The notes under the pieces: generated by a model
The model's input: only the letters and a program-made list of their open reading frames with translations
Told to the model about the DNA's origin: nothing
The model's database searches: none
From: Actinospica sp.
GTDB taxonomy: Bacteria > Actinomycetota > Actinomycetes > Streptomycetales > Catenulisporaceae
Reading direction: 5' to 3'
Length of the DNA stretch: 24,000 nucleotides
Assembly (NCBI GenBank): GCA_035493475.1
Contig: DATJIF010000029.1
Span: 102,163 to 126,162, forward strand
Translations under genes and position numbers: made by a program
Shown here: positions 4,507 through 18,414 of the stretch, one piece after another
How positions within the stretch are numbered: position 1 is the first letter of the stretch
Layout: each line of letters begins with the position of its first letter

Positions 4507-7494
4507 ATGCGCCCACGTGGCGGACTGAGCCGGGAGGAAGCCGATCGTCTCGACCAGGTCCGCGGACACACGGACCCGGACAACGAGACCTGGACCAGCG
4601 TTTACGACCTGCGCGGCCGCGTCACCGAGAAGGAAGACCCCACCGCCGGCAACTCGTTCATGGCCTACGACCCGAACGGCAACCTCGTCCAGTCCGAGGA
4701 CTCCCGCAGCAAGTACATCTCCTACGTCTACGACAAGCTCGGCCGAACAACCGCCGAATACGCCGCCCAAAACGTGGCCGCCGATCAGACCGCAGGGCCG
4801 AGCGGCACTCAGATGTACCAGTGGTACTACGACAACAGCAACCATGCCATCTCCGGGATGACCAATCCGATCGGACAACTGACCACCCAGACCACGTACG
4901 CGAACGGCGCCACCTACACCGAGCAGACAGCCGGGTTCAACATCTTCGGCGAATCTCTCGGCGAAGAGATCATCATCCCGTCCACTGTCACTGGGCTCGC
5001 CGGCACCTACACGATCACGCACACCTACACCACGTACACGGGCCTGCCGTTCAAGGACACCTACTCCAGCTTCGGCGGCATCAACAGCGAAACCACCGAG
5101 CACAGCTACAGCGGACTGTTTGACAGTCCCAGCGAGCTGGCCGACGCGAACTATGGCTACGCCCAGTACGTCGACTACGACGCGTACAGCCGCCCCACTC
5201 AGGAGCAGATCGGCGGATCCACCGGCACCGCCGAGATCACCAACACCTACGACGTACACACCGGAAGCCTGCACGAGCAGAACATCTCGCGCCAGACCGC
5301 CACCCCCACCGCCGTCGACGACACCGTTTACACCGACGACCCGTCCGGCAACATCACCCAGCAGACTGAGACCCGCCTCGGGTCCTCCAGCGACACCGAA
5401 ACCCAGTGCTACCAGTACAACGGTCTCGACCAACTCAACCAGGCCTGGTCCGCCACCGCCGCCTGCACCACGGCACCGACCGCGAGCAACGTCGCCAACA
5501 CCCTCGGCACGGGCAGCGCCTACTGGGACTCCTGGACCTTCAACAACGAAGGCGACCGTACCGGCCAGACCCAATACGCCATCGGCACCGCGACCACCAA
5601 CACCACCACTACCTACACCTACAGCAGCAGCCAACCCCACACCCTGGCCAGTACAAGCACCACCGGCGGGACCACCGCCAACACCAGCTACGGATACGAC
5701 ACTGCCGGCAACACCACCGGCCGCACCACCCCGACCGACGGCACCCAAACCCTGAACTGGAACAACGCCGAACAACTCGCCTCTGTCAACACCACCACGG
5801 CAGGCACGGCCAACACCGCCGGAACCAGCAGCTACGTCTACGACCCCTCCGGCAAACTGCTCCTGCAAATCACCCCGACCGCCACCACTGTCTACTTCGA
5901 AAACGAACAAGCCACCCACAGCACCAGCAACGGCGCAGTCACCGGCATCCGCTACCTCGCACTCCCTGGTGGCGGCACGGCCGTGCGCACCGGCAACACC
6001 ACCAACTACACCTTCGAGATCACCGACCAGCACGGCACCGCCGACCTCGACCTCGACTACACCTGCCAAACCCCCACCTGGCGCCAATACGACCCTTACG
6101 GCAATTCTCGCGGCGCTACCGCCACCTGGGTTGACAACCGGGGATTCCTCAACGATGTCAACGACACCAGCACCGGCATCACCGACATCGGAGCCCGTTG
6201 GTATGACGCCAGCCTCGGAAGGTTTGCAAGTCTCGATCCCGTCTTCGAAGCGTGGGACACCCTAGCTCTCGGCGGCTACACCTACACCGACGGCAACCCC
6301 GTTGGCGAAGCGGACCCGACGGGTCTTATGCTCCCCTATGGCAAGGCGGCCAGCGACGGGTGCACCACCCAGGCGCAATGCAATTCAGATGTCGTGCAGT
6401 ACAACAAAGAAGTCCTCAGGAACGCAATCACCGAAGCGGGCTGGGACGAGCAGACGGAATGGCACGCGCGAAAGATAGCTGCACAGTATCGCTGCGGCGG
6501 AATCAGCACCGATACCAACTGCGGAACACTGAGCTGGCAACAAGAGCACGAAATCCAGTACAAGTACACTCAGCAGCTCGAGTTACTTCAGAACGAACTC
6601 CTTAAAATCGACAACACCCTCTGGCCCGGGCTCGCCGGCTGCATAAACGGCAACCAGAACGGCGACTGCGTTCCAGCCGTAGCGACCGGCATCACGTTTG
6701 CCAGTGGCGCTGCGGAAGACGACGGCACGAACGCACCCGCCTGCGGAGGAGACAGCTTCACGGCCGACACGAAGGTCCTCACCTCTACGGGCAAGACAGT
6801 GCCGATCACCTCGCTCAAGGTCGGCGACAAGGTGATATCGGCCAACACCACGACCGGGAAGAACCAAGCTGAAACCGTGGACGCAGTCCTTGTCCACCAC
6901 GACACAAACCTCTACAACCTCACCGTCGAGACCGGCCACGGCATCGAAGTCATCCACGCGACCGCCAACCACCTCATCTGGGACCTCACCCAGCACGCCT
7001 GGATCCAAGCTAGCAAGATCCACAAGGGCGACCGGCTCCTCACGGAGAATGGCGCTACGGCAACAGTGGACGGCGGCAGCGCTCCCGCCGACCAAACCGG
7101 TTGGATGTGGGACCTCACCGTACACGACCTGCATGCGTTCTACGTGTTGGCGGGCAACACGCCGGTCCTCGTGCACAATGCCGGTGGTGCGGCCAACTGT
7201 CTTATCGGCCAGCAGGGTGAGGCGGCGTCTGGGATCACCAAGAACACGCGGACGATCATCATCAATGGGCGGCCGCGCATCCCAGATGAGCTCGATCCGG
7301 CTGCGGGTATCATTGGTGAGGTGAAGAACGTGAAGTATCAGTACCTCTCGACCCAGCTGAAGGACGACCTGTCGTATGCGCAAGCGAACGGCTTTCAGTT
7401 CAATCTATATGTGAATAGCGCGACTCAGCTCTCCAGCCCCCTTCAGTCCCTGGTTGACTCAGGGCAGATCAACCTCATCAGGAACATTCCATGA
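4507..7494 (+). CDS. Rhs/YD-repeat polymorphic toxin, N-terminally truncated (Rhs core + PT-HINT + REase-fold toxin)
   Basis: 995 aa. YD repeats occur throughout (YDLRGRVTEKED, YDPNGNLVQSED, YVYDKLGR, YGYDTAGN, YVYDPSGKLL). The Rhs core end is DPYGNSRG...GARWYDASLGRFASLDPV...DPTGLM (nt 6313-6330). An in-frame TAG sits two codons upstream of the ATG (4501-4503). No signal or secretion domain is present. Confidence 0.9.
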   Translation: MRPRGGLSREEADRLDQVRGHTDPDNETWTSVYDLRGRVTEKEDPTAGNSFMAYDPNGNLVQSEDSRSKYISYVYDKLGRTTAEYAAQNVAADQTAGPSGTQMYQWYYDNSNHAISGMTNPIGQLTTQTTYANGATYTEQTAGFNIFGESLGEEIIIPSTVTGLAGTYTITHTYTTYTGLPFKDTYSSFGGINSETTEHSYSGLFDSPSELADANYGYAQYVDYDAYSRPTQEQIGGSTGTAEITNTYDVHTGSLHEQNISRQTATPTAVDDTVYTDDPSGNITQQTETRLGSSSDTETQCYQYNGLDQLNQAWSATAACTTAPTASNVANTLGTGSAYWDSWTFNNEGDRTGQTQYAIGTATTNTTTTYTYSSSQPHTLASTSTTGGTTANTSYGYDTAGNTTGRTTPTDGTQTLNWNNAEQLASVNTTTAGTANTAGTSSYVYDPSGKLLLQITPTATTVYFENEQATHSTSNGAVTGIRYLALPGGGTAVRTGNTTNYTFEITDQHGTADLDLDYTCQTPTWRQYDPYGNSRGATATWVDNRGFLNDVNDTSTGITDIGARWYDASLGRFASLDPVFEAWDTLALGGYTYTDGNPVGEADPTGLMLPYGKAASDGCTTQAQCNSDVVQYNKEVLRNAITEAGWDEQTEWHARKIAAQYRCGGISTDTNCGTLSWQQEHEIQYKYTQQLELLQNELLKIDNTLWPGLAGCINGNQNGDCVPAVATGITFASGAAEDDGTNAPACGGDSFTADTKVLTSTGKTVPITSLKVGDKVISANTTTGKNQAETVDAVLVHHDTNLYNLTVETGHGIEVIHATANHLIWDLTQHAWIQASKIHKGDRLLTENGATATVDGGSAPADQTGWMWDLTVHDLHAFYVLAGNTPVLVHNAGGAANCLIGQQGEAASGITKNTRTIIINGRPRIPDELDPAAGIIGEVKNVKYQYLSTQLKDDLSYAQANGFQFNLYVNSATQLSSPLQSLVDSGQINLIRNIP
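6742..7179 (+). other. Hint (intein-like, pre-toxin HINT) domain inside the Rhs protein
   Basis: CGGDSFTADTKVLTSTGKTVPITSLKVGDKVIS ... HAFYVLAGNTPVLVHN. It has an N-terminal Cys and a C-terminal His-Asn, as in Hint/intein autoproteolytic modules that release polymorphic-toxin tips. Confidence 0.8.
7180..7491 (+). other. C-terminal toxin tip, restriction-endonuclease (PD-(D/E)xK) fold, Tox-REase-5-like
   Basis: 104 aa follow the VHN cleavage motif: GQQGEAASG...RPRIPDELDPAAGIIGEVKNVKYQYLSTQLKD...AQANGFQFNLYV. The PD...E-x-K arrangement and overall pattern resemble REase-fold polymorphic toxin domains. The family assignment is from memory only. Confidence 0.6.
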
Positions 7495-8237
7495 CGGGTG
7501 AGAATAGCTCTAGCGTGAATTCCGGGCGGTTGACGCACAAGCAAGCTGTCGAGAAGGCGCTAAGCGACCCAGTGGCGCGCGCGGCAATTGCGAGTGATCC
7601 GCGTGTGGCTCAACGGCGGCAACTCTATGCGGAGAGTGCGGCAGGATTGCTCGCTGAACTGGCCGACCTGGGCTTCCGTGTCGAGAGCGTCGGCGAGCTC
7701 GCCCGTCAACGCATGAAGTACGAGGCAGCGGTACCGGCTCTGCTCAGGTGGCTTCCTCGAGCGACGTATCTACCGCTGGCCGAGGATATTGTTCGGACGC
7801 TCTCTGTCACCTTCGCAAAGAAGCGGGCATTGCCAGAGTTCTTGAAGTTCTTCCGCTGCCCACCGGACGTGGAAGACCCGATGCGCCCAGCAACCTCAGA
7901 GCCAGCCAGCGAGCATCTCCGTTGGGTCGTCGGTAATGGGTTGGGTATATTTGCAGGGCCTTCAGTTGCTGACGAGCTCATTGAGCTCGCCCTCGACAAA
8001 TCGTTCGGTCAGGCACGAACGCAGATCGTCCTTGCCTTGCCGAAGACGAAAGATAGCAGGGTGGGCGATGTGCTGATTGAGCTTCTCGACGATCCCACTG
8101 TTTGTGCATTCGCCATTGAGGCGCTTGGAAAGACGAAGATCGTCGCAGCCGAAGGGTCGATCGAGAGACTTCTCGACCACCCGGATAAGAATATTAGAGA
8201 CCAAGCCAAGAGGGCTCTTAAACGTATCCGAAGCTGA
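7491..8237 (+). CDS. HEAT-repeat protein, probable cognate immunity protein of the Rhs toxin tip
   Basis: The ATG at 7491 overlaps the Rhs TGA (ATGA, 7491-7494). 248 aa. C-terminal HEAT/PBS-lyase-like repeats (DSRVGDVLIELLDDP, AIEALGKT, SIERLLDHPDKNIRDQAKRALKRI). It uses more A/T-ending codons than its neighbours. Confidence 0.75.
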   Translation: MTGENSSSVNSGRLTHKQAVEKALSDPVARAAIASDPRVAQRRQLYAESAAGLLAELADLGFRVESVGELARQRMKYEAAVPALLRWLPRATYLPLAEDIVRTLSVTFAKKRALPEFLKFFRCPPDVEDPMRPATSEPASEHLRWVVGNGLGIFAGPSVADELIELALDKSFGQARTQIVLALPKTKDSRVGDVLIELLDDPTVCAFAIEALGKTKIVAAEGSIERLLDHPDKNIRDQAKRALKRIRS

Positions 8238-8959: not shown

Positions 8960-10327
8960 TTACCGTGTGTGACGTGGTCGCATTGTGGTCGCGCGGGATC
9001 GTGGTCGCAGGGGTCGGTGTCGTCGGATGACAGGGTTGGTCGGGTGTTTCGGTGTCTCGGTCGGTTCGGTGCGGTGGTCGCGGAGTGGTCGCCGTCCTGA
9101 TTCCAGTGGCACGGGCGTCGTCGGGTGTCGGCTCGCTCGGTCGGCTCGGGTCAGCGTGTTGTCGATGGTGTCCACGGCGTCGCGGGCGGCTTGCGCGGTG
9201 AGGTGGGAGTAGATGTTCGCAGTGGTCGACAGGGTGGAGTGGCGCAGGGTCTTGGAGACGACGGTGAGCGGGACGCCTTCGGTAATCGAGATGGTCGCGG
9301 CCAGGTGGCGGAGGTCGTGGACCGTACAGCGCGGGACGTCGGCGTGGTCGCTGAGTGTGTGGAAGTGCCGGAGGACGTAGCCGGGGTGCAGCGGTCGTCC
9401 GTCGGGGCGGGTGAAGACGTATCCGCCGCCGAAGTCGTGGGCCGTAGTCGGTGTTTTTTCGTTGGCGCGGTGTTCGAGGGCTGTGGCGACGCGGTCGGAG
9501 ATGGCGATCCAGTTCTTGCTGGTGCGGGTCTTCGGGGTGCCGAGGACGAGTCGGTTGTTGTCGACGGCGCACAGGCTCCAGCGGATGTAGAGCGTGCGGG
9601 TGTCGAGGTGGATGTCGTTCCAGTGCAGTCCGAGGGCTTCGCCCTTGCGCATGCCGGTGCCGATGAGGACCTCGATCAGGTCGGCGAAGGCCGGGTCGGC
9701 GCTATGGCGGTGGCGCAGGAACCGGGCGGCCTGTTCGGGTGTCCAGATGCGGCGTTCCTGGGCGGCGGGTCGGGGCAGGACGGTGGGTCGGGCGGGGTTG
9801 CGGGGTAGGCGGTGTCGGCGTACGGCGTCGCCGAGGGCGCTGGAGAGGGTGGCGAGGATCCAGTAGACGGTGACCTGTCCGCGGCCGTTGGCGAGTTGGG
9901 TGTGGACGTAGGCGGCGATGTGCGTGTAGCCGAGGTCGTCGAGGCGTACGGTGCCGAGTGCGGGGATCAGGTCTTGGTGGACGTGGGCGTTGTAGCGGGT
10001 GAACGTGGTGGGTTTCAGCTGTAGTCGCTTGGCTTCGAGCCATTCGGTGAGGTAGTCGGCGAGGGTCTGGTTGGGGTCGGCGTTGAACCCTGCGGCAGTG
10101 CCCTCGAGCAGGCGGCGCAGCGCGGTGCGGGCGGTTTCCTCGGTGGGGAACCCGCCACGGCGGATCGTGCTGCGCCGTTCCGGGTTGGGTAGGTCGACGG
10201 CGAAGCTCCAGGTTCCGTGGCCCGGGTCGGTGTGCAGGGTGGGGCAGCCGGCTCCGAGTTGGCGGTGGTTGTGGTCGCGGCAGCCGCAGCGGCGGTAGAC
10301 GCGGCCCCGGTTCACGGTGTTACGCAT
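8960..10327 (-). CDS. int: tyrosine recombinase / phage-type integrase
   Basis: The ATG at 10327 is preceded by AGGAG with about 8 nt spacing. 455 aa. The N-terminus MRNTVNRGRVYRRCGC is typical of actinomycete integrases. Catalytic residues are present: GMRKGEALGL (Arg), HDLRHLAAT (H-x-x-R), LRHS, ANIYSHL (Tyr). The ORF-track extension to 10900 is upstream read-through. The last about 55 aa are Pro/Arg/Thr/His low complexity. Confidence 0.92.
   Translation of the reverse strand: MRNTVNRGRVYRRCGCRDHNHRQLGAGCPTLHTDPGHGTWSFAVDLPNPERRSTIRRGGFPTEETARTALRRLLEGTAAGFNADPNQTLADYLTEWLEAKRLQLKPTTFTRYNAHVHQDLIPALGTVRLDDLGYTHIAAYVHTQLANGRGQVTVYWILATLSSALGDAVRRHRLPRNPARPTVLPRPAAQERRIWTPEQAARFLRHRHSADPAFADLIEVLIGTGMRKGEALGLHWNDIHLDTRTLYIRWSLCAVDNNRLVLGTPKTRTSKNWIAISDRVATALEHRANEKTPTTAHDFGGGYVFTRPDGRPLHPGYVLRHFHTLSDHADVPRCTVHDLRHLAATISITEGVPLTVVSKTLRHSTLSTTANIYSHLTAQAARDAVDTIDNTLTRADRASRHPTTPVPLESGRRPLRDHRTEPTETPKHPTNPVIRRHRPLRPRSRATTMRPRHTR
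8974..9092. repeat. five copies of GTGGTCGC, two pairs phased at 11 bp (candidate integrase arm-type sites)
   Basis: Exact 8-mers at 8974, 8985, 9001, 9074 and 9085. Pairs 8974/8985 and 9074/9085 are each spaced 11 bp apart and lie exactly 100 bp from each other. They sit between the tRNA remnant and the catalytic part of int, overlapping the low-complexity 3' end of the int ORF. Confidence 0.6.
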
Positions 10328-11091: not shown

Positions 11092-11763
11092 TCATGGCAG
11101 CAGGTTCACACCCGTGACCTCACCAGTTGTAGCGATTTCGTCGATCTTCATGGTGGCGTCGATTCGTTGCGGTGATCTGGCGGAGGTACGCACTGCAGTC
11201 AGCGAACCGCCAGCAGTGCCGACCTGAATGTCAAGGGAGATCAGGCCATCGGGCGCGTTCGATCGTCGCTCGGCCAAGTCGGGGGCGAGTGCGGTCAGCT
11301 GCTTGATGAGATCGGGTATCAGGCTTCGTTGACGGCCGCCGCGCTCTAGTCGGACGGCCTGTCGGCCCAGAAGCGGCGCGATGTCCCTCGGTAAATCCCC
11401 TTCTCCGGGAAGGGAGACCTCGTTGAGGTTCCCGAGCAGCAGGGGGATGACGTGGTTGCCATTCTCCAGCGCCAACCTGATCTCCCGGCGGACCCAGTCG
11501 TGAGGGTCGTCCAGCCGGCGGGCGCCGTTGCGGTTCTGCGCGGTGAGCCAGCCGGGGCCAATGCAGACGAGCATCACGCGGCACGAAGCGGCTCGGGCTT
11601 CCAGAACTGGTGTGAACTCCTGTCCTGGGCGTAGGGTCTGCCCCGCCTTGAACACGACCTCCGCGCCGAACGCCTCGGCGAGTTTCTCGTAGACGAAGTC
11701 CGGACCCCAGTCGCCGGCCTCGCCGCGGTAGCTGACGAAGATGACGGGCTCACGGTCGGGCAT
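11092..11763 (-). CDS. TIR-domain protein with C-terminal repeat-motif tail
   Basis: The ATG at 11763 has GGAG 7 nt upstream. 223 aa. TIR signatures are VIFVSYRGEAGD, SCRVMLVCIGPGW, DWVRREIRLAL (W-x-x-x-E with the catalytic-type Glu retained) and HVIPLLL. The tail (aa 175-222) is ISLDIQVGTAGGSLTAVRT...IDATMKIDEIATTGEVTGVNLL. The start overlaps the upstream gene by 14 nt. Confidence 0.9.
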   Translation of the reverse strand: MPDREPVIFVSYRGEAGDWGPDFVYEKLAEAFGAEVVFKAGQTLRPGQEFTPVLEARAASCRVMLVCIGPGWLTAQNRNGARRLDDPHDWVRREIRLALENGNHVIPLLLGNLNEVSLPGEGDLPRDIAPLLGRQAVRLERGGRQRSLIPDLIKQLTALAPDLAERRSNAPDGLISLDIQVGTAGGSLTAVRTSARSPQRIDATMKIDEIATTGEVTGVNLLP

Positions 11764-13237
11764 CAAGAGTCTCCAGTCGTGTGGCGGGGGGCCGCGGCCG
11801 CGCGGTGCGCGCCAGGGTGATGATGTCGGGCGCCAGGGCCCGAAGCCGGGCGGCCCGGCGTCGGGACAGGATCGACACGAGGCGTCGCAGGTCGCGTTGG
11901 ATTGTGATCGACCCGTTCGGTACCGCGGGGAGAAAGGATTCGATGACATCGGCCGCCCGGTCGCACTCGTGGACGTGCGCGTACGCTGTCGCCTCCCTGA
12001 TCGCAAAGCAAACCCGGGCGTGTCGGAAGGCCGGGTTCGGCTCCCGATCGTTCGGAAACGTACTCGGCATGGTCGTGGCGAACATATCCGCGGCCCTGCG
12101 GAACTCCTCCAGTTCCAGCAGCCCCGAGGCCTCGGTCAGGCGTGATGAGCTGAGCTCCGGGTCCCACGCCGGACCCCACTCCCAGTCCTCCGCGGACGGG
12201 GAGGACACGTCGTCGGAGACGTCGTAGAAGGCGTCCATCGCGCGCCGGAATCCCTCGCGGTCGCCGCTGCGGGCCCGAGCCCGGGACTCGCGTTGCAGGG
12301 CGATTCGGCGCAGTCTCGTCGGCAGGGCCGGGTCTGACAGCGCGAACTGGACGTGGTGCAGAGCGGAACGCGGATCGTCGGCCCGCAGCGCGGTCGCCGA
12401 TTGGCGGATCGCAGCGTACGCGGCGATCGCGGTGTCTCCGCTGTCGGAGCCGAGACAGACGGCCAGGGCCAGCCATTCATGCATCGCCTGCGCGTCGCCT
12501 AGTTCCTCCGCGAGCCAGCTCAAATACTCCGCATAGCGCGCCTCGACGCGGCGATACGCGAGAGCTCGCCCGGCTGACGCCGTACGTGCGGCTGAGTGGA
12601 GTGCGACGAGCTGGGCGACGACGTCGTTCACTACGGCGGCAGGTCCGACGAGATGCCGTTGTGTGCGTAAACGCTCCAACTCCGCCGCAGCTTCGACGAC
12701 AACCACGTTGACGGGCATCGGGGGCCGGGAACATCCGATCCGGGACAGCAACGACACGCTCGGGACCGTCACCGGATCCGTCGGGCGCCCGGATTCTGCG
12801 GCGAACAGCCTGACCAACGCGCCGCTCTGTCCGAGCTCTTTGTCCAACCGTCCCGCCACGTACTTCGTCCCGAGGGAATGTCCATTCTCAAGCTTGCTGA
12901 CGTACACGTGTGAAAGTCCTGCCGCCTTTGCCAGATCACGTTGCGACAGGCCGACCGCGTTTCTAGCGCGTCGGATCTCCCCGCCGTAGCCGGCGGCTAC
13001 CGGGCACTCCGCTTCAGGTGTGTGGCGCGTGGGCCGCGGCGCGACGACCGGGCCGGGCCGCTCGCATAAGGACTCGTAGACCCGCATCAGGCGCGTGGAT
13101 GCGGGCCGCAGCCCGTTCTCGACCTTGCTCAGGTGACCCTTGCTGTAGTCGGTGAGCCGCACGATCTGCCCCAGGCTGACGCCCGACGCTTCGCGCAGCG
13201 CGCGAAGCGTCCTGCCGTCCCCGCTCGATGTCCCCAT
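11750..13237 (-). CDS. dual XRE-family HTH protein with TPR-like helical C-terminal domain
   Basis: The ATG at 13237 gives 495 aa. It has two Cro/C1-type HTH units (RTLRALREASGVSLGQIVRLTDYSKGHLSKVENG and IRRARNAVGLSQRDLAKAAGLSHVYVSKLENG). About 300 aa of Ala/Leu/Arg-rich helical repeats follow. The ORF-track entry 11750..14953 over-extends upstream, antisense to real plus-strand genes. There is no SD before the ATG, so the transcript may be leaderless. Confidence 0.85.
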   Translation of the reverse strand: MGTSSGDGRTLRALREASGVSLGQIVRLTDYSKGHLSKVENGLRPASTRLMRVYESLCERPGPVVAPRPTRHTPEAECPVAAGYGGEIRRARNAVGLSQRDLAKAAGLSHVYVSKLENGHSLGTKYVAGRLDKELGQSGALVRLFAAESGRPTDPVTVPSVSLLSRIGCSRPPMPVNVVVVEAAAELERLRTQRHLVGPAAVVNDVVAQLVALHSAARTASAGRALAYRRVEARYAEYLSWLAEELGDAQAMHEWLALAVCLGSDSGDTAIAAYAAIRQSATALRADDPRSALHHVQFALSDPALPTRLRRIALQRESRARARSGDREGFRRAMDAFYDVSDDVSSPSAEDWEWGPAWDPELSSSRLTEASGLLELEEFRRAADMFATTMPSTFPNDREPNPAFRHARVCFAIREATAYAHVHECDRAADVIESFLPAVPNGSITIQRDLRRLVSILSRRRAARLRALAPDIITLARTARPRPPATRLETLDARP

Positions 13238-13387
13238 ACGTAGCAAAGTACTGAAAAATCTGGCCTCCTGGGATGCGTCTCGCGACGCTATGGAGTACTT
13301 GGGGAGCGTCGAGTAAACACGCAACAGTTCTCCGCGCGCCGCCGGGTTGCTAGTTTCACTGATCGCCGAACACGTAGATCTGGGGGA
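13238..13387. promoter_or_regulatory. divergent promoter/operator region of the two operons
   Basis: 150-bp gap with the most A/T-rich sequence of the locus (TAGCAAAGTACTGAAAAATC). AGTACT palindromic cores occur at 13247-13252 and 13294-13299. TACTTT ends 8 nt before the HTH-gene ATG and is a possible -10 box for a leaderless transcript. Confidence 0.4.
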
Positions 13388-13927
13388 ATGATGGCTGATC
13401 CAGACACGGTGGCGATTCCGGTGCTCGCCGGAGCGGCACTCACCCAAGGAGTGTCGTTTCTGTACGGCCAGGCTGCCGAGGCGCTGCGGATCAGGCGAGA
13501 GGGCAGGGCGGCGCACCGTTCGGCCCTGCTCGTCCCCGAAGCCTTCGAACCTGCGGACTTCGCTGTAGTCCCCGATCTTGCCGTGCTCGATGCTCGAGCC
13601 CGCGAGCTGCGGATGCTGCTGGCCATCGCTGAGCCGTTTGCGGGGTGCTCTGCGGACGACCTCGACGGTGCAGACGAATCGTTCCGTGCCTGCTTCGGCC
13701 ATATCCGCTTGGCCTTGGAGGAGATCTATGGCACCCGTTTCACGTTCTCTGGCGAACGGCGCCCCGGACCGCGCATCCAGCAGAGCGTCTCCGATGTTCG
13801 CGGCCGCACCACGGGAATGAGGGTCCGCGGCCAGGGGGCGAAAGCATCCGGAGAGATCGTCCAGCGAGTCAAAACCGTCCACCAGAGCGGTGAACTGACC
13901 GGCCTCGACATCGACTTCCGGGCCTGA
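13388..13927 (+). CDS. small protein: N-terminal hydrophobic Gly/Ala helix (Bell/HeLo-like?) + C-terminal repeat-motif tail
   Basis: 179 aa with tandem ATG ATG at 13388 and GGGGGA immediately upstream. The N-terminus is DTVAIPVLAGAALTQGVSFLYGQAAEALRIRREGR. The tail (aa 130-175) is IQQSVSDVRGRTTGMRV...IVQRVKTVHQSGELTGLDI. It lies 72 nt upstream of the STAND-like gene. Confidence 0.7.
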   Translation: MMADPDTVAIPVLAGAALTQGVSFLYGQAAEALRIRREGRAAHRSALLVPEAFEPADFAVVPDLAVLDARARELRMLLAIAEPFAGCSADDLDGADESFRACFGHIRLALEEIYGTRFTFSGERRPGPRIQQSVSDVRGRTTGMRVRGQGAKASGEIVQRVKTVHQSGELTGLDIDFRA

Positions 13928-13999
13928 CTGCCAGCGGCAGAAGGTCACCGCGCTTTCTGACACGGCACGGCACAGCGATCGTAATCCGAGGGAGAACTG

Positions 14000-16174
14000 A
14001 TGGACACGCTTGAGGCGGCGAACGCGACGACTCGACAGGAGATGGATGCGCCCGATCCACTCGACCACACCTTGGCGGTGGAGCGGAAACTTGAGCGGCT
14101 TGGGACCTCCATCCCCTCCACGTCGCCGGGCATCGAGGCGACTGCGCACGTGGAGAAGAACGACGGAGTCATCAATCTCTTGAACGTTGTGTTGACCGAG
14201 GCGCTGAAACTCTCGCACCTGGGTCCGGCCTACCTCGACGAGGTCCACGAGACATTTGCCGAGCCCGGTGAGAGCTTCGACCAGGCCTACAACACCCTGT
14301 GCGGCGAGCAGCGATTCGTCGTCCTGAAGCTGCGGCCGGACAGCGGGACGAAGACTGCGGCCATCGCCATGATCAGACGACTCGTGCTGGAGATGCATGT
14401 CGAGTCGAAGTATCTCCTCCCGCACGGCCCGACCGGCCTTCCCACGGCTGCGCTGGCCACTGAGAGGTGCCATGCCTTTCTCATGGATCTGTCCAAGGCG
14501 GAAGAGAGCCGACTCACCAGCGGGTTCGGGAGGGACCTCAAGGCCGCGTCGGCAATCCTGGCCGATGCGAACTCGTACCTGATCGTGCTGGCCGAGGCCG
14601 AGCAGTGGGCCCGGATCAGTGACGGCGTAGAGAGAGGTGTGCTGCATGAATTGCAGGCGCCCGGTCCGGAATCGGTGGCCCGGAAGTGGGTGGCCGCGAA
14701 AGCGCCGGGATGCGACGTCATGAAGTGGTTCGGCGATCGGCGGATCGCGGGACTCTTGCAGGACCAGAGCCCGCGCGAGGCGGTTGAGATCGCGAAGCTG
14801 ATCTGTGCCGCGCTCTCTCCCGAGATCCAGCCCGAGCGCACCGCAACCGCTGTGAAATCGGACTCTTCGGCCGCGGACACAGATTTTCAAGTGCGGGTCG
14901 CCAGCGTTGTGGACGCTCGAAGGCAGTGGCGCCCACAACTCCTGGACTGGCACAGGGAACCGAAACGGACGGCTTTCGAACGCAACTTCCTGCTCGTTGC
15001 CGCCGTGTTACGCGAGTTCCCGGTCGGAGCCGTTTTCAAGGAAGCGAAGTACCTGAGCGAGCAGTTCAAGGACGTGGGCGAGCGTATGAAGGGTCAGAGC
15101 GGTCCGGGTGTCATTGAACTGCTGCACACGATCGGCGCGCCCACCGACCCCGGCGGCAAGGTCCGCTTCTCACGCCCGCGATGGGCCGAGGCCGTCGTCG
15201 ACTACTACTGGAGTGACCGGCCCGACGGCCACGACGCCTTCATCAGCTGGCTGATTCGACTGCCGTTGAGCCGTACGTTCCAGGACGACGAGCGTGCCAC
15301 CGTGGCCAATCGCGTCCTTGAGGTCATGTTCGGTCTGATCATGACGAAAGCCCGGGTCAACGAGCTTGAACACGTCATCGACCAGTGGAGCGCCCAGCCG
15401 AACACGGAGACTGCGGCTTGGGACTTCCTCGACGCCGCCGCGCTGCACCACACATTGGGCCGTCAGGTCGCTCAGCTCATGCTCCGCTGGACGGGTACGG
15501 CTCATGTCCGTCGGCGCAAAGCAGTCGCGGCGGTATGCGGCCGCCAATTCGGACGAACCAATACAGGGAAGGCGCTCGTGCGGCTCCGCCGCCTTGTCGC
15601 CGACGAAGAGCCCGAGGTCGCCGCAGTGGCCGAACGGGCCTTGGTCGCGCTGTGGGAGCAGCCGGACGTCGGCCGCGAGCTTCTCGAACACCTCGTCGAG
15701 TGGCAGAAGACTGATGTCGCGGACCGTGTCGTGGCTGCCCGGAACATCTTCGGCAAGATCGCCGCGCTCCGCTCGCGGACCGACCCGACTCGCCCAGACC
15801 TACTGGTCTGGGCAGTGGCGAACGACGAGAATCTGAGCCTGGTGGCCGAGGGATGGCGCTGTCTGCTGGAAGGTGGCATCGAGTGTGATCCGCTGGTCGA
15901 CGCGTTGCGCCCATGGCTCGCGATGGCACGGGACGAAGCGGACGTCGAAGCCGACGTGATGTCCGTGTTCGAACGGGCCATCTCAGGACGACGGCGGGCA
16001 GCGGAAAGGCTGGAAAGGGCCGCCCAAGACTGGCGTTGGTCCACCGGTGACGTGGACCAGAGCCCGGCCGGCCGCCTCGTTCGCCGGCTCAGCGGACTCA
16101 CGGCGCAAGAACCGGTCACGACCATGTTCGCGGCGACGTTCGACGTTTCCAGTGAGCAAGGATATGGGGCGTGA
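14000..16174 (+). CDS. STAND/NLR-like protein with N-terminal repeat motif, degenerate P-loop and HEAT/ARM-like C-terminal region
   Basis: The ATG at 14000 is preceded by GAGGGAGAA. 724 aa. The N-terminal motif is IEATAHVEKNDGVINLL (aa 45-61, nt 14132-14182). The strand-plus-P-loop-like segment RFVVLKLRPDSGTKTAAIAMI (nt 14330-14356 covers LRPDSGTKT) keeps Lys-Thr but lacks both canonical glycines. A Walker-B-like HAFLMDLS follows. The C-terminal half is a helical repeat (EEPEVAAVAERALVALWEQPDVGRELLEHLVEW). Confidence 0.8.
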   Translation: MDTLEAANATTRQEMDAPDPLDHTLAVERKLERLGTSIPSTSPGIEATAHVEKNDGVINLLNVVLTEALKLSHLGPAYLDEVHETFAEPGESFDQAYNTLCGEQRFVVLKLRPDSGTKTAAIAMIRRLVLEMHVESKYLLPHGPTGLPTAALATERCHAFLMDLSKAEESRLTSGFGRDLKAASAILADANSYLIVLAEAEQWARISDGVERGVLHELQAPGPESVARKWVAAKAPGCDVMKWFGDRRIAGLLQDQSPREAVEIAKLICAALSPEIQPERTATAVKSDSSAADTDFQVRVASVVDARRQWRPQLLDWHREPKRTAFERNFLLVAAVLREFPVGAVFKEAKYLSEQFKDVGERMKGQSGPGVIELLHTIGAPTDPGGKVRFSRPRWAEAVVDYYWSDRPDGHDAFISWLIRLPLSRTFQDDERATVANRVLEVMFGLIMTKARVNELEHVIDQWSAQPNTETAAWDFLDAAALHHTLGRQVAQLMLRWTGTAHVRRRKAVAAVCGRQFGRTNTGKALVRLRRLVADEEPEVAAVAERALVALWEQPDVGRELLEHLVEWQKTDVADRVVAARNIFGKIAALRSRTDPTRPDLLVWAVANDENLSLVAEGWRCLLEGGIECDPLVDALRPWLAMARDEADVEADVMSVFERAISGRRRAAERLERAAQDWRWSTGDVDQSPAGRLVRRLSGLTAQEPVTTMFAATFDVSSEQGYGA

Positions 16175-16920
16175 AACGGTGGTGGAGGAGCGGTTCGGGC
16201 AACCTGGCGTGGCTCGAACCGTTCAGCGACCGCGTGCCCGGCGCGGATGGCTTTGGCTTCGACGTCGAATACCACATCGAAATACTCGCCGCCGACGCGG
16301 ATGCCTTGTCGACGCAGTATGACCCGTGTATAGCTGCCGTCCGCACGCTGGTTGAGCCGGCCTTGGCCCAGTGTGACGTCCTGCGTTCCGCAGTTGCACA
16401 ACAGAGTGTGAATTTACAGATATCGAGATCAATGTCGAAGCGCGAACTGGGTGCCGTCATCCGGCAATGCCAGGTGTCCGTTCGGGTTGGGCGCGAGACC
16501 GCCGAATCGGCCAGACGGCACGCCAAGGCGCTCATGGATGCGAAGGCCCATGAGGTGGGCCGAGACGCGGTACGTGCGCAGATGCGATTCCTTGAGACGG
16601 AAGTGCTGCGCAACCCGGCGACACTTCGGGTCTACATCTTGGCGACCGAGATCATGCAGGACAAGTCTGTCTCCGCCAAGGGCGTCGACGAGCTGGAGTC
16701 CCTGGCCAGACTGGTTTATGAGTGGTCGCCCGAGGCCACGTGGGTGGAGACCGCGAAGATCCTGAACGCCCACCTCGGTAGCCTCCCTTGCCACGAAGTC
16801 TCGGCCCTGCTCTCGACGCTCCGGAAAAGCATCCAAGAGCACGACAATCCGGCCCTGGTCGATCGGTTCGACCGGATCCACCATGGGCAGCAGGCCGACA
16901 GCCTCGTGAAGGGGACGTGA
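16171..16920 (+). CDS. hypothetical protein (helical/coiled-coil-looking), translationally coupled
   Basis: The GTG at 16171 overlaps the upstream TGA (GTGA), with AAGGA 8 nt upstream. 249 aa. No recognisable domain. The central region ETAESARRHAKALMDAKAHEVGRDAVRAQMRFLETEVL looks coiled-coil. Confidence 0.7.
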   Translation: MKRWWRSGSGNLAWLEPFSDRVPGADGFGFDVEYHIEILAADADALSTQYDPCIAAVRTLVEPALAQCDVLRSAVAQQSVNLQISRSMSKRELGAVIRQCQVSVRVGRETAESARRHAKALMDAKAHEVGRDAVRAQMRFLETEVLRNPATLRVYILATEIMQDKSVSAKGVDELESLARLVYEWSPEATWVETAKILNAHLGSLPCHEVSALLSTLRKSIQEHDNPALVDRFDRIHHGQQADSLVKGT

Positions 16921-17393
16921 CGGTGTTTCGGCTGATGACCATCGTGTCCGTGGGACACGGCAGAACCAGAAAGCCATCGATGTGGAGGGGGCACGGCAGG
17001 CGGCTAGACAGGGCGCTCGGGATTTCGACGCTGACCCTTCATTGTCACGAAGACAGCTGGGGGGAAATACAGCGCCTGATGGAGCGCGTCGCGATCTGGA
17101 ATGCCTCCCAGGCCGTCACCTACCATTCGAAGCCACACGTTGAGGTGCGGTTGCCCGGCCCGAAGGTTGCCGCTGCACTGCACGAGATGCGGGTCAACGC
17201 CTTCGTCGGAAACGCCTACGACCGAGCCTTCGTCCGGTGCGCCTACACTGCGCTGGCATTGGTCGTCGACCAGTTCGACCCGTTGAACCCGGGTAAGCCC
17301 CTGCCGCCGGTCGTCTTCGACTGGTTTACTTACGGCGTCGGCGGCCAACTGCCGTGGTCCGGCCGCTACGACCGCAGCACTGATCGAGAATGA
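16917..17393 (+). CDS. hypothetical protein, translationally coupled
   Basis: The GTG at 16917 overlaps the upstream TGA (GTGA). Alternative in-frame starts are GTG 16923, with the best spacing to GAAGGGGA at 16908-16915, and ATG 16935. About 152-158 aa. No recognisable domain. The ORF-track start at 16788 overlaps the previous gene and is unlikely. Confidence 0.6.
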   Translation: MTVFRLMTIVSVGHGRTRKPSMWRGHGRRLDRALGISTLTLHCHEDSWGEIQRLMERVAIWNASQAVTYHSKPHVEVRLPGPKVAAALHEMRVNAFVGNAYDRAFVRCAYTALALVVDQFDPLNPGKPLPPVVFDWFTYGVGGQLPWSGRYDRSTDRE

Positions 17394-17505: not shown

Positions 17506-18225
17506 TCAATCCGAATCGAGGATCTTCTCCCGCACGGCGTACATGACCGCCTCCATCCGGGAGTGCAGTTGGAGCTTCTCCAGGATGTTGCGGACGTGGT
17601 TCTTGACCGTGTTCTCGCTGATGAACAGGGTCTTGGCGATCTTGCTGTTGTTCGCGCCGGTGGCGATCAGCTTGAGCACCTCGAGCTCGCGGTCGGTCAG
17701 CTTCGGCGCGGGCGGGCCGGGGTTCTTGCGGTCCTCGCCATGCCGGACCATGGTGGCGAACTCGGTCAGCAGCTTCGCCGCCATCGGCGGGGAGATCAGC
17801 GACTGCCCGCCGACCACCGCCCGGATCGAGTCGGCGATCTCGTGCGGCAGCACATCCTTGAGCAGGTAGCCGCTCGCACCCGCCTTGATCGCCTCGTACA
17901 GGTCCTCTTCGTCCTCGCTCATGGTGAGCATCACCACGCGGGCGCTCGGCGCGAGGTCCTTGATCGCGGCAGCGGCCTCGATCCCGCCGCCGATCCCGCC
18001 GCGCGCCGGCATCTTCACGTCCAGCAGCACCAGATCCGGCAGCAGCTCCCCGGCCTTGGCCAACGCCTCCCCGCCGTCCCCCGCCTCGCCGACCACCTCG
18101 ATGTCCGGCTCGGTCTCCAGCACGGTACGCAGACTCAGGCGCATCAGGGCGTGGTCGTCGACGAGCAGAACCCTGATCGGCTCGCCGCGCTGCGCCGTCG
18201 CCGGCCCGGGCCGAGTCTCGGCCAT
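17506..18225 (-). CDS. NarL/LuxR-family two-component response regulator
   Basis: The ATG at 18225 is preceded by GAGGGAGGGG. 239 aa. The receiver domain has IRVLLVDDHALMR...DLVLLDVKMP. The C-terminal LuxR HTH has LTDRELEVLKLIATGANNSKIAKTLFISENTVKNHVRNILEKL. Confidence 0.9.
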   Translation of the reverse strand: MAETRPGPATAQRGEPIRVLLVDDHALMRLSLRTVLETEPDIEVVGEAGDGGEALAKAGELLPDLVLLDVKMPARGGIGGGIEAAAAIKDLAPSARVVMLTMSEDEEDLYEAIKAGASGYLLKDVLPHEIADSIRAVVGGQSLISPPMAAKLLTEFATMVRHGEDRKNPGPPAPKLTDRELEVLKLIATGANNSKIAKTLFISENTVKNHVRNILEKLQLHSRMEAVMYAVREKILDSD

Positions 18226-18414
18226 GTAGCCCCTCCCTCGGGTCTCGCCGCGCTGGACCGCCGTCGCGGCGTGCCCGGGCGAGAGTCGACCGGGCACGCT
18301 CGGTAGTCGGACCATCATCGTATGGGGTCGATGACTCCTGATAATAGTCCTCCGCGCGACGTGCATTTGCACGCTTGCACGCGCTGCGCCGCAGAAGCGG
18401 GCACCCCGGCCCGG

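Follow-up and report, generated by a model that had tools for sequence, protein, structure and literature searches.

The locus and its genes

The stretch analysed here (hereafter the window) comprises 24,000 nucleotides of an Actinospica sp. genome assembly (GCA_035493475.1, contig DATJIF010000029.1, positions 102,163 to 126,162 of the forward strand) and contains a locus in which two divergent operons meet at a short intergenic region (Table 1). The leftward operon encodes a protein with two XRE-type helix-turn-helix (HTH) domains and NsdA-like tetratricopeptide repeats (TPR), followed by a TIR-domain protein, the start codon of the TIR gene overlapping the stop codon of its upstream neighbour by 14 nt. 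The rightward operon encodes a small protein (S179), a large receptor-type protein (BIG), a third gene product (P249) and probably a fourth one. Related short motifs of ~20 residues are found twice at the C-terminus of both S179 and the TIR protein, and a candidate counterpart once at the N-terminus of BIG, while the motif is absent from the HTH-TPR protein; the locus is discussed here as a putative system of matched-motif, amyloid-type signalling between one receptor and two effectors. Base composition is that of a high-GC actinobacterium, and the exact proteins are on record for a metagenome-assembled genome of Actinospica sp. The peptides quoted for these termini in an initial annotation of the window are all present in the translations at the residues given there. 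For BIG, S179, P249 and the open reading frame (ORF) at 16788-17393 (scanned as 201 amino acids) no significant match was obtained in Pfam, NCBIfam or PADLOC.

Table 1. Genes, motifs and sites of the divergent locus (positions refer to the window; aa, amino acids)
Feature	Position	Strand	Basis or remark
TIR-domain effector, 223 aa including initiator Met	11092..11763	-	Pfam TIR_2; TIR domain ~7-120, tail 170-223
TIR tail pseudo-repeat R1 ISLDIQVGTAGGSLTAVRT, aa 175-193	11185..11241	-	conserved in ~27 homologues
TIR tail pseudo-repeat R2 IDATMKIDEIATTGEVTGVNLL, aa 201-222, one residue short of the stop	11098..11163	-	z=7.9 against S179 R2
Dual XRE-type HTH and NsdA-like TPR protein, 495 aa	11750..13237	-	partial matches to Pfam HTH_3/HTH_31 and NCBIfam NsdA_fam_reg
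Divergent intergenic region, 150 bp	13238..13387	.	gene coordinates
S179, 179-aa effector: three-helix bundle 15-114, disordered two-repeat tail 129-179	13388..13927	+	alignment of 21 homologues, AlphaFold2 model
S179 tail pseudo-repeat R1 IQQSVSDVRGRTTGMRV, aa 130-146	13775..13825	+	homologue alignment, profile comparison
S179 tail pseudo-repeat R2 IVQRVKTVHQSGELTGLDI, aa 157-175	13856..13912	+	homologue alignment, profile comparison
BIG, 724-aa receptor-type protein	14000..16174	+	family search, AlphaFold2 model, Foldseek
BIG N-terminal single motif IEATAHVEKNDGVINLL, aa 45-61, directly before the folded domain	14132..14182	+	clade conservation
BIG degenerate Walker-A-like site SGTKT, aa 115-119	14342..14356	+	family consensus GxxGxGRxT
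P249, conserved third gene, 249 aa, GTG start	16171..16920	+	GTGA overlap with the BIG stop
Probable fourth gene, ~158 aa, GTG start	16917..17393	+	GTGA overlap with the P249 stop; Catenulispora homologue in the same position

Two-repeat tails of the effectors

The similarity of the tails was assessed by profile-profile comparison against a column-permutation null. The second pseudo-repeats of S179 and of the TIR protein resemble each other with z=7.9 (p<0.0005) and the first ones with z=3.9 (p=0.007), and the two repeats are also related within each protein (R1 vs R2: z=4.0, p=0.0035 in S179; z=3.7, p=0.005 in the TIR protein). A hidden Markov model (HMM) of S179 R2 ranks the TIR tails over nearly all of 1,700 shuffled decoys, and with the window sequences left out of the model its best non-self match in a six-frame translation of the whole window (43,225 amino acids) is TIR R2. 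Several deep-branching TIR homologues have tails that align gap-free with the S179 tail and keep the order of the repeats, such as FNLAQEIDTVSETGVAVGLELL of P0063 and '...IRQSVGTLDGKATGVQ...LAQEIDTVSETGVAVGLEL'.

Homologues lacking conserved tails, which the initial annotation had named as an outcome that would speak against its proposal, are not what was found. Of 21 S179 homologues (40-100% identity), 20 keep the tail (the exception, P0018, has a divergent and truncated C-terminus), with the consensus 'RV.Q.V.DV.G.TTGMKIRG' for R1 and 'VVQRVKTVH..GELTGIDID' for R2, and about 27 homologues of the TIR protein have retained its tail, with the consensus 'I.a...iG...GKa..VRA' for R1 and 'IDAe..vd...etGEat.VDLL' for R2. 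The linkers flanking the tails are variable among the same homologues. Since the tails are conserved in this way, they are considered to be under selection. Judged by their sequences, the tails of S179 and of the TIR protein are homologous: the similarity of R1 and R2, the gap-free bridging tails and the common repeat order identify a two-repeat module of about 50 residues in all that is common to two otherwise unrelated effector proteins.

The family-wide tail alignment (A4) shows the layout of the HET-s-related amyloid motifs (HRAM), in which two effector pseudo-repeats of ~21 residues flank a short variable loop and the receptor has one repeat. This bears out the earlier observation of two pseudo-repeats per effector and one on the receptor, in agreement with the internal repeat scores given above. 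All motif-bearing segments are predicted to be disordered and are joined to folded domains.

The effector proteins

The TIR protein matches Pfam TIR_2 over residues 7-118 with 39.3 bits (cutoff 28; E=1e-9). The initial annotation had noted that a catalytic-type Glu is kept in the segment DWVRRE, and this residue, Glu93, is indeed invariant in an alignment of 24 TIR relatives. We take it to be the catalytic Glu of TIR NADases on the basis of the W-x-x-x-E motif, not of a structural superposition.

The AlphaFold2 model of S179 (predicted local distance difference test score, pLDDT, of 68, falling below 50 in the tail) contains a three-helix bundle of ~115 amino acids with helices at 15-42, 64-85 and 97-114. 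The most conserved segment of the protein is N-terminal and hydrophobic (A9, P11, L13, G15, A17, Q20, G21, F24, L25, Y26, G27, Q28). A Foldseek search of this model against the PDB returned nothing under E=0.7, and the sole match of the S179 profile among PDB sequences was apolipoprotein A-IV (E=0.25). The Pfam family PF25587 (Rv2743c family) was matched weakly, and so far unproven, by four of the 21 S179 homologues (best E=9.5e-4), the S179 of the window not being among them. The assignment of S179 to the Bell/HeLo-type membrane executioners, proposed in the initial annotation, thus received no support from Pfam, from Foldseek searches of the PDB or from PDB sequences, and kinship with Bell, HeLo or MLKL proteins could not be shown, no relevant structure or sequence having been matched. 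S179 may be called a putative pore-former by analogy with Bell, Bab and HeLo proteins.

The receptor and its N-terminal motif

The AlphaFold2 model of BIG (pLDDT 78) starts with a disordered acidic leader (residues 1-71) that includes the motif, continues with an alpha/beta domain at about 100-200 and ends in long helical repeats. The top Foldseek matches of this model are the ARM repeats of importin-alpha type (E about 1e-4), and NLRC4 is matched with E=6e-4 over ~800 aligned columns at low TM-scores (0.14-0.17). Among 60 diverse BIG relatives, 17 match Pfam nSTAND3 below threshold, three match AAA_16 and four HEAT_2, and the BIG profile weakly matches the P-loop region of RecD (E=0.12). A helical, repeat-containing region of sensor type is thus recognised at the C-terminus, both from the ARM repeats found by Foldseek and from the HEAT_2 matches of the relatives. 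The Walker A site of BIG reads SGTKT, whereas the family consensus is GxxGxGRxT followed by hhhhDL..EE and that of the window clade is RPDSGT[KR]T. In the BIG family an Arg replaces the P-loop Lys of Walker A, with P0146, P0243 and P0235 keeping GKS/GKR. The term STAND-like, which the initial annotation used for this protein, is reasonable in view of the sub-threshold nSTAND3 matches, the P-loop-like consensus, the NLRC4 match and the HEAT/ARM-like C-terminus, while membership of the STAND class is not established by these models and profiles.

In the window clade, the N-terminal motif of BIG has the consensus 'PGI.....V..N.GE.N.vKV'. Pairwise Smith-Waterman comparison proved too noisy in this clade, so profile-profile tests were used instead. 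The BIG motif aligns without gaps to TIR R1 (p=0.011), while lower similarity was found to S179 R2 (p=0.056) and TIR R2 (p=0.07), and no significant profile-profile similarity was found to S179 R1. When an HMM of the BIG N-terminus, built without the window sequence, was run on the same six-frame translation, TIR R1 ranked first among the matches other than BIG itself. The matches cited in the initial annotation (IDATMKIDE with IEATAHVEK, and a terminal NLL) are individually not significant.

Receptor-effector matching across the BIG family

A profile search identified 1,608 cluster representatives of the BIG family, 385 of them at E<1e-30. Shortly ahead of the P-loop-like region, the N-termini of these proteins have short motifs containing Gly, Val, Gln and Asn. 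A scan of genome contigs with the single 724-aa sequence found no relative; a scan with the alignment A2 identified 33 loci, which belong to Streptomyces, Amycolatopsis, Saccharothrix and Catenulispora. A gene of the S179 family ends just before the BIG gene in 32 of them (the receptor frame of L042 was unreadable).

At this level receptor and effector motifs match more clearly. In the Streptomyces group, the receptor motif 'V.Q.V..N.GTVIGVQN..EI' and the effector R1 'V.Q.....V.G..TGMDADEI' align ungapped (z=4.4, p=0.0013). The initial annotation had suggested testing whether receptor N-termini co-vary with the neighbouring effector tails, and such co-variation is seen between sub-clades, in that receptors with 'GVNIG[LV]QI' face effectors with 'G[TV]NIGMRA' and receptors with 'GTVIGVQN' face effectors with 'G.KLIGMKA'. 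Cognate pairs score higher than non-cognate ones (permutation p=0.0017 for 25 non-redundant pairs). Individual loci show the same: in L005 'HNSGTVIGL' is matched with 'HENGTVIGG'; in L043 'GNVGNSISGGTIAGDAWQV' faces 'GDVANSISGGAFYGPVYQV', with 12 of 19 residues identical; in L044 'GTTIHGNVGNAITGGNFSAEVRQSG' faces 'GTTINGGVGSFISGGTFYGSVQQGA', with ~14 of 24 identical; and in L009 the effector and receptor motifs share 9 of 16 residues, L045 being similar. The arrangement of effector tail and receptor N-terminus proposed for the window is thus real and family-wide, and the receptor side of the link finds stronger support at this family level than in the in-clade similarity.

One branch of the BIG family pairs with a different upstream effector of 262-292 amino acids, the tail of which is strongly matched to the receptor. 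The genes for these effectors lie at 7126-8004 in L009, 1394-2206 in L043, 2733-3521 in L044 and 4165-5004 in L045. Their N-terminal signature 'AVD..GF...GTGDGY.FGV' is read here as nucleotide-cyclase-like, and in all four loci a gene for a regulator with cyclic nucleotide (cNMP)-binding and HTH_Crp domains precedes the effector gene. The cyclase-like signature and this regulator gene together hint at a cyclic-nucleotide output of the branch.

Gene order and distribution

The six-gene layout is conserved in the Catenulispora and Actinospica loci, and the combination of TIR and HTH-TPR genes is confined to this clade. The HTH-TPR gene precedes the TIR gene in every homologous locus, deep branches included. 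Four of the homologous loci recovered reach beyond the HTH-TPR gene (Catenulispora GP43, as NCBI, ENA and Logan copies, and GAS73), and S179 and BIG are present in all four. In other taxa the core unit consists of effector, BIG and third gene, in this order. The TIR module is therefore an addition to a pre-existing system, and it acquired the same tail.

A third gene of ~240-275 amino acids follows BIG, overlapping its stop codon or a few bases from it, in L005, L006, L007, L009 and L043-L045. Homology to P249 was confirmed by tblastn for the Catenulispora loci, L005 and L011-L019. A gene of this size without a known domain comes after the receptor gene in each locus inspected, and the P249-type gene seems, from this distribution, to be a core component. 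In Streptomyces (L020-L040) a conserved ORF of ~100 amino acids, with the consensus 'MRLHLLRW.LDPVTSWQALR...SFDVAWRQ.RV..FPEE..Y', lies ~300-700 bp upstream of the effector gene on the same strand.

The HTH-TPR protein is most likely the transcriptional regulator of both divergent operons; a search of the divergent intergenic region for an operator-like inverted repeat found none. On the minus strand, a frame of 1,067 amino acids (11750-14953) is open opposite S179 and the first part of BIG. It was rejected as a gene, only its last 495 codons (from the ATG at 13237) being the HTH-TPR gene and the rest a high-GC artefact.

Relation to published amyloid signalling systems

BASS motifs have been described on effectors of the TIR2, CHAT, alpha/beta-hydrolase and guanylate cyclase types, are enriched in Q and N, and in BASS1/6 occur as two to three pseudo-repeats per effector and one per NOD-like receptor (NLR) (Dyrka et al. 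2020, bioRxiv 10.1101/2020.01.06.895854). The Bab/Agp amyloid signalling system, which has a non-NLR receptor, works in phage defence in E. coli, and its motif, BASS11, occurs on TIR proteins too (Ibarlosa et al. 2024, bioRxiv 10.1101/2024.11.07.622273). In the fungus Chaetomium globosum, one NLR of the PNT1/HELLP/SBP cluster controls a HeLo-like and a lipase effector, and the literature of the field speaks of 'pairs (or triplets)'. The initial annotation had regarded a tailed TIR protein as unusual and had proposed one sensor for two effectors; the former was overstated given the TIR2 and BASS11 examples, and the latter has its precedent in Chaetomium.

With the BASS pairs of Dyrka et al. the window shares an effector gene that immediately precedes the receptor gene in the same orientation, a short motif at the effector C-terminus with a candidate counterpart at the receptor N-terminus, a filamentous actinobacterial host, a TIR-type effector (TIR2 and guanylate-cyclase effectors being reported there) and, with BASS1 and BASS6 in particular, a multi-repeat effector (two pseudo-repeats here, two to three in the BASS systems) facing a single-repeat receptor. 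Unlike these pairs, the receptor of the window belongs to an unannotated nSTAND3-like family with a Walker A Arg and not to the NB-ARC/NACHT receptors, its motif fits none of BASS1-10, its small effector is not demonstrably a Bell protein, receptor and effector in the window clade are far less identical than in published pairs, the receptor gene is followed by a conserved third gene and two different effectors are found at one locus.

The HET-S/NWD2 system of Podospora anserina has the same two effector pseudo-repeats of ~21 residues and single NLR repeat, and PNT1/HELLP/SBP has the same combination of one receptor with two mechanistically different effectors, there a membrane-targeting protein and an enzyme. 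Both of these are fungal, in contrast to the window, for which no relation to the sequence of the HET-s prion domain was detected, and the enzyme effector of the Chaetomium cluster is a lipase instead of a TIR protein. Bab/Agp, for which phage defence was shown experimentally, resembles the window in its small helical protein with an N-terminal hydrophobic helix and a C-terminal motif and in its receptor that is not an NLR, but it has another motif and one effector. With Pfam nSTAND3 (PF20720) the BIG family shares the succession of NTPase, helical region and repeats, with the weak matches of 17 of 60 members falling in the P-loop region; all these matches, however, are below the gathering score, the BIG of the window has no match and the Walker A Lys is replaced in the family consensus (GxGR), the site of the window being the degenerate SGTKT.

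HMMs of BASS1-10 were rebuilt, crudely, from the examples in Table S2 of Dyrka et al.; the top shuffled decoy reached 6.6 bits. With these models the BASS2 motif was found at N-termini of the BIG family (P0178 with 19 bits, P0189 with 11 bits and P0185 with 7 bits), and relatives of the TIR protein match BASS2 at 21-23 bits and, in one case, BASS1 at 22 bits. Since relatives match BASS1 or BASS2 and the window copies match none of the ten, the TIR and BIG protein families take part in BASS-type pairs, the motif of the window itself representing an unclassified family. The TIR relatives P0066-P0103 have ~50% identity in the TIR domain and quite different C-terminal tails; those of P0103, P0084 and P0075 match the published BASS1 or BASS2, and others look amyloid-motif-like ('HLEQHTTVRDFGRAFVAQGGNVITHGD', 'GTVTAVQNGNLYVN'). 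It appears that different tails were exchanged on a common TIR scaffold. A likeness of the window motif to BASS4 and BASS6, seen by eye, was dropped when the rebuilt HMMs gave no support, and so was a likeness of S179 R2 to HET-s repeat 2, also seen by eye, which the PDB profile search did not support.

Interpretation and alternatives

We consider the chances somewhat better than even that the locus encodes matched-motif receptor-effector signalling of the BASS/HET-s type, with BIG as the one receptor and S179 and the TIR protein as its two effectors. In such a system a trigger, probably phage- or conflict-related, would be sensed by the repeat region of BIG, which would then oligomerise and gather its N-terminal motifs into a beta-sheet nucleus. 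This nucleus would template the two-repeat tails of S179 and of the TIR protein into an ordered polymer, amyloid-like or beta-solenoid-like, and polymerisation would free or activate the N-terminal hydrophobic helix of S179 for membrane attack and cluster the TIR domains into an active NADase assembly. From the layout and from the parallels described above we infer amyloid templating and formation, NAD+ depletion, membrane attack, cell killing, the trigger and a role in defence.

A number of observations weigh against this interpretation. On the receptor side, NB-ARC or NACHT domains were not matched in BIG by Pfam, NCBIfam or PADLOC, and NTP-driven oligomerisation is uncertain because the Walker A site is degenerate and the family has Arg for Lys. 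The similarity between the BIG motif and the effector tails in the window clade is marginal (p 0.011-0.36), cognate Smith-Waterman scores of tail and N-terminus in this clade (16-18) are under the shuffled mean of 22, and the BIG motif adjoins the first helix of the folded domain and could be part of that domain. Regarding the motif, it carries more charge than typical BASS motifs and contains less Gln and Asn (Q 5%, N 3%), none of its five copies in the window scored above decoys with the rebuilt BASS1-10 HMMs, and HET-s(218-289) was not retrieved when the tail profile A4 was searched against all PDB sequences at E<=10. On the effector side, no relation of S179 to Bell, HeLo or any solved pore-former was detected.

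Several of these points would fit an alternative that we hold to be unlikely, in which the shared motifs are non-amyloid docking peptides and the tails bind the HEAT-like repeats of BIG or, by beta-augmentation, its N-terminal strand. A stoichiometric complex would then form, comparable to the adaptor (EAD/Death-like) coupling to STAND NTPases, instead of a self-propagating polymer. The charged, Gln/Asn-poor composition, the absence of a match to any BASS1-10 profile or to HET-s and the position of the BIG motif against a folded domain all agree with docking, and the clade-wise co-variation of receptor and effector motifs would also be expected from heterodimeric contacts. However, a simple docking peptide would not obviously require a tandem of two ~21-residue pseudo-repeats per effector for a single one in the receptor, the arrangement of HET-s, BASS1 and BASS6. 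Moreover, the published BASS2 motif occurs in matched pairs of other BIG family members, and the likeness between tail and receptor N-terminus suggests that the interaction is homotypic rather than complementary.

More doubtful still, in our judgement, is the possibility that two independent systems happen to be adjacent, namely a regulator-effector pair of HTH-TPR and TIR proteins and an S179-BIG-P249 unit. The TIR tail would in that case derive from a shuffled effector tail and serve only the self-assembly of the TIR protein, or its response to S179 polymers instead of to the receptor. Such independence would account for the divergent transcription of the two modules, for the constant position of the TIR gene after the HTH-TPR gene, even on contigs that show no other part of the system, and for the occurrence of S179-BIG-P249 without TIR or HTH genes in Streptomyces, Amycolatopsis, Saccharothrix and a metagenomic element; TIR R2 also resembles S179 R2 far more than the BIG motif. 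It is harder to reconcile with the presence of S179 and BIG next to the HTH-TPR gene on every contig that reaches past the latter, with the selection on the TIR tail in ~27 clusters and with TIR R1 being the best non-self match of the BIG N-terminal HMM in the whole window and its ungapped profile-profile partner. In addition, the HTH-TPR protein has no matching motif with which to act as the receptor side.

Finally, a chance or compositional likeness between disordered, Val/Thr/Gly-rich termini of a high-GC actinobacterium, the tails being mere linkers, could explain the short and gapped matches first cited and the marginal in-clade similarity of receptor and effectors, but it is very improbable overall and, for the two effector tails, is largely refuted by the tail-tail score and decoy ranking, the conserved repeat order with ungapped bridging sequences, the conservation of tails next to variable linkers and the HMM cross-matches that fall on the predicted motifs in the six-frame scan.

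Island context

A tyrosine integrase gene (Phage_integrase with a SAM-like N domain; 8960-10315, minus strand) adjoins the locus, and no tRNA gene that could mark an attachment site was found in the window. GC content is 0.60-0.69 up to ~17.4 kb vs 0.70-0.74 past 18 kb. This shift, together with the adjoining integrase, suggests an integrated island with its right end near a gene for a LuxR-type response regulator (17506-18372). Further to the left, a polymorphic toxin of 995 amino acids with RHS repeats, PT-HINT and a C-terminal Tox-REase-7 nuclease is encoded at 4507-7494 (plus strand), and its gene is overlapped by that of a 248-aa HEAT-repeat protein (7491-8237, plus strand), possibly its immunity protein. 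Base composition is strongly skewed at 5-7 kb (GC skew -0.32 and AT skew +0.44 in the 5-6 kb bin). Homologous loci (L004, 15037-18290; L006, 1-3943; L047, 2809-6778) have as neighbours either a gene pair for a UvrD helicase and an OLD-family ATPase (AAA_15/AAA_21 with TOPRIM) or the genes of a type I-E CRISPR-Cas system, and the element that carries L005 also encodes an integrase, an HTH_17 protein and RepSA. The setting fits a mobile defence or conflict island.

Significance

The signalling concept itself is already known, since tailed effectors were described by Dyrka et al., phage defence was reported for Bab/Agp and a two-effector NLR exists in Chaetomium. A literature search for the receptor family, the small effector family, the motif family, the third gene and a dual-effector bacterial locus found no description of them. 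What appears to be new is the BIG receptor family, which is unannotated, abundant and distinct from the NB-ARC/NACHT receptors; the S179 effector family, the motif family and the conserved third gene; and a bacterial locus in which two different effectors share one tail.

A broader proposal, to which we give somewhat less than even confidence, is that BIG stands for a large, hitherto overlooked family of actinobacterial receptors (1,600 or more clusters at 50% identity), namely nSTAND3-like NTPases with an Arg-type or degenerate P-loop, HEAT-like repeats and a third gene that always follows. By means of prion-like N-terminal motifs these receptors would signal to interchangeable tailed effectors, comprising a helical putative pore-former, TIR enzymes and nucleotide-cyclase-like proteins accompanied by a Crp-type regulator, and in Actinospica and Catenulispora one receptor would co-template two of them.

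Signalling of the amyloid type is well known from fungi, and since 2024 it has also been established for one anti-phage system of E. coli, while bacterial surveys have so far been anchored on Bell domains paired with NB-ARC/NACHT receptors. The locus suggests that the same logic operates with receptor, small-effector and motif families that are invisible to those screens, the receptor family being abundant in Actinobacteria. The family-wide replacement of the Walker A Lys by Arg raises the possibility that these receptors may oligomerise without NTP hydrolysis. The locus would also be a naturally occurring bacterial example in which effectors of two different mechanisms depend on one receptor. 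It raises the questions of whether a tail that polymerises on a template can switch on the TIR enzyme to which it is appended and whether the two death effectors would be triggered side by side or in a hierarchy. If one receptor does co-template both effectors, amyloid-templated activation of a bacterial TIR enzyme would become directly testable.

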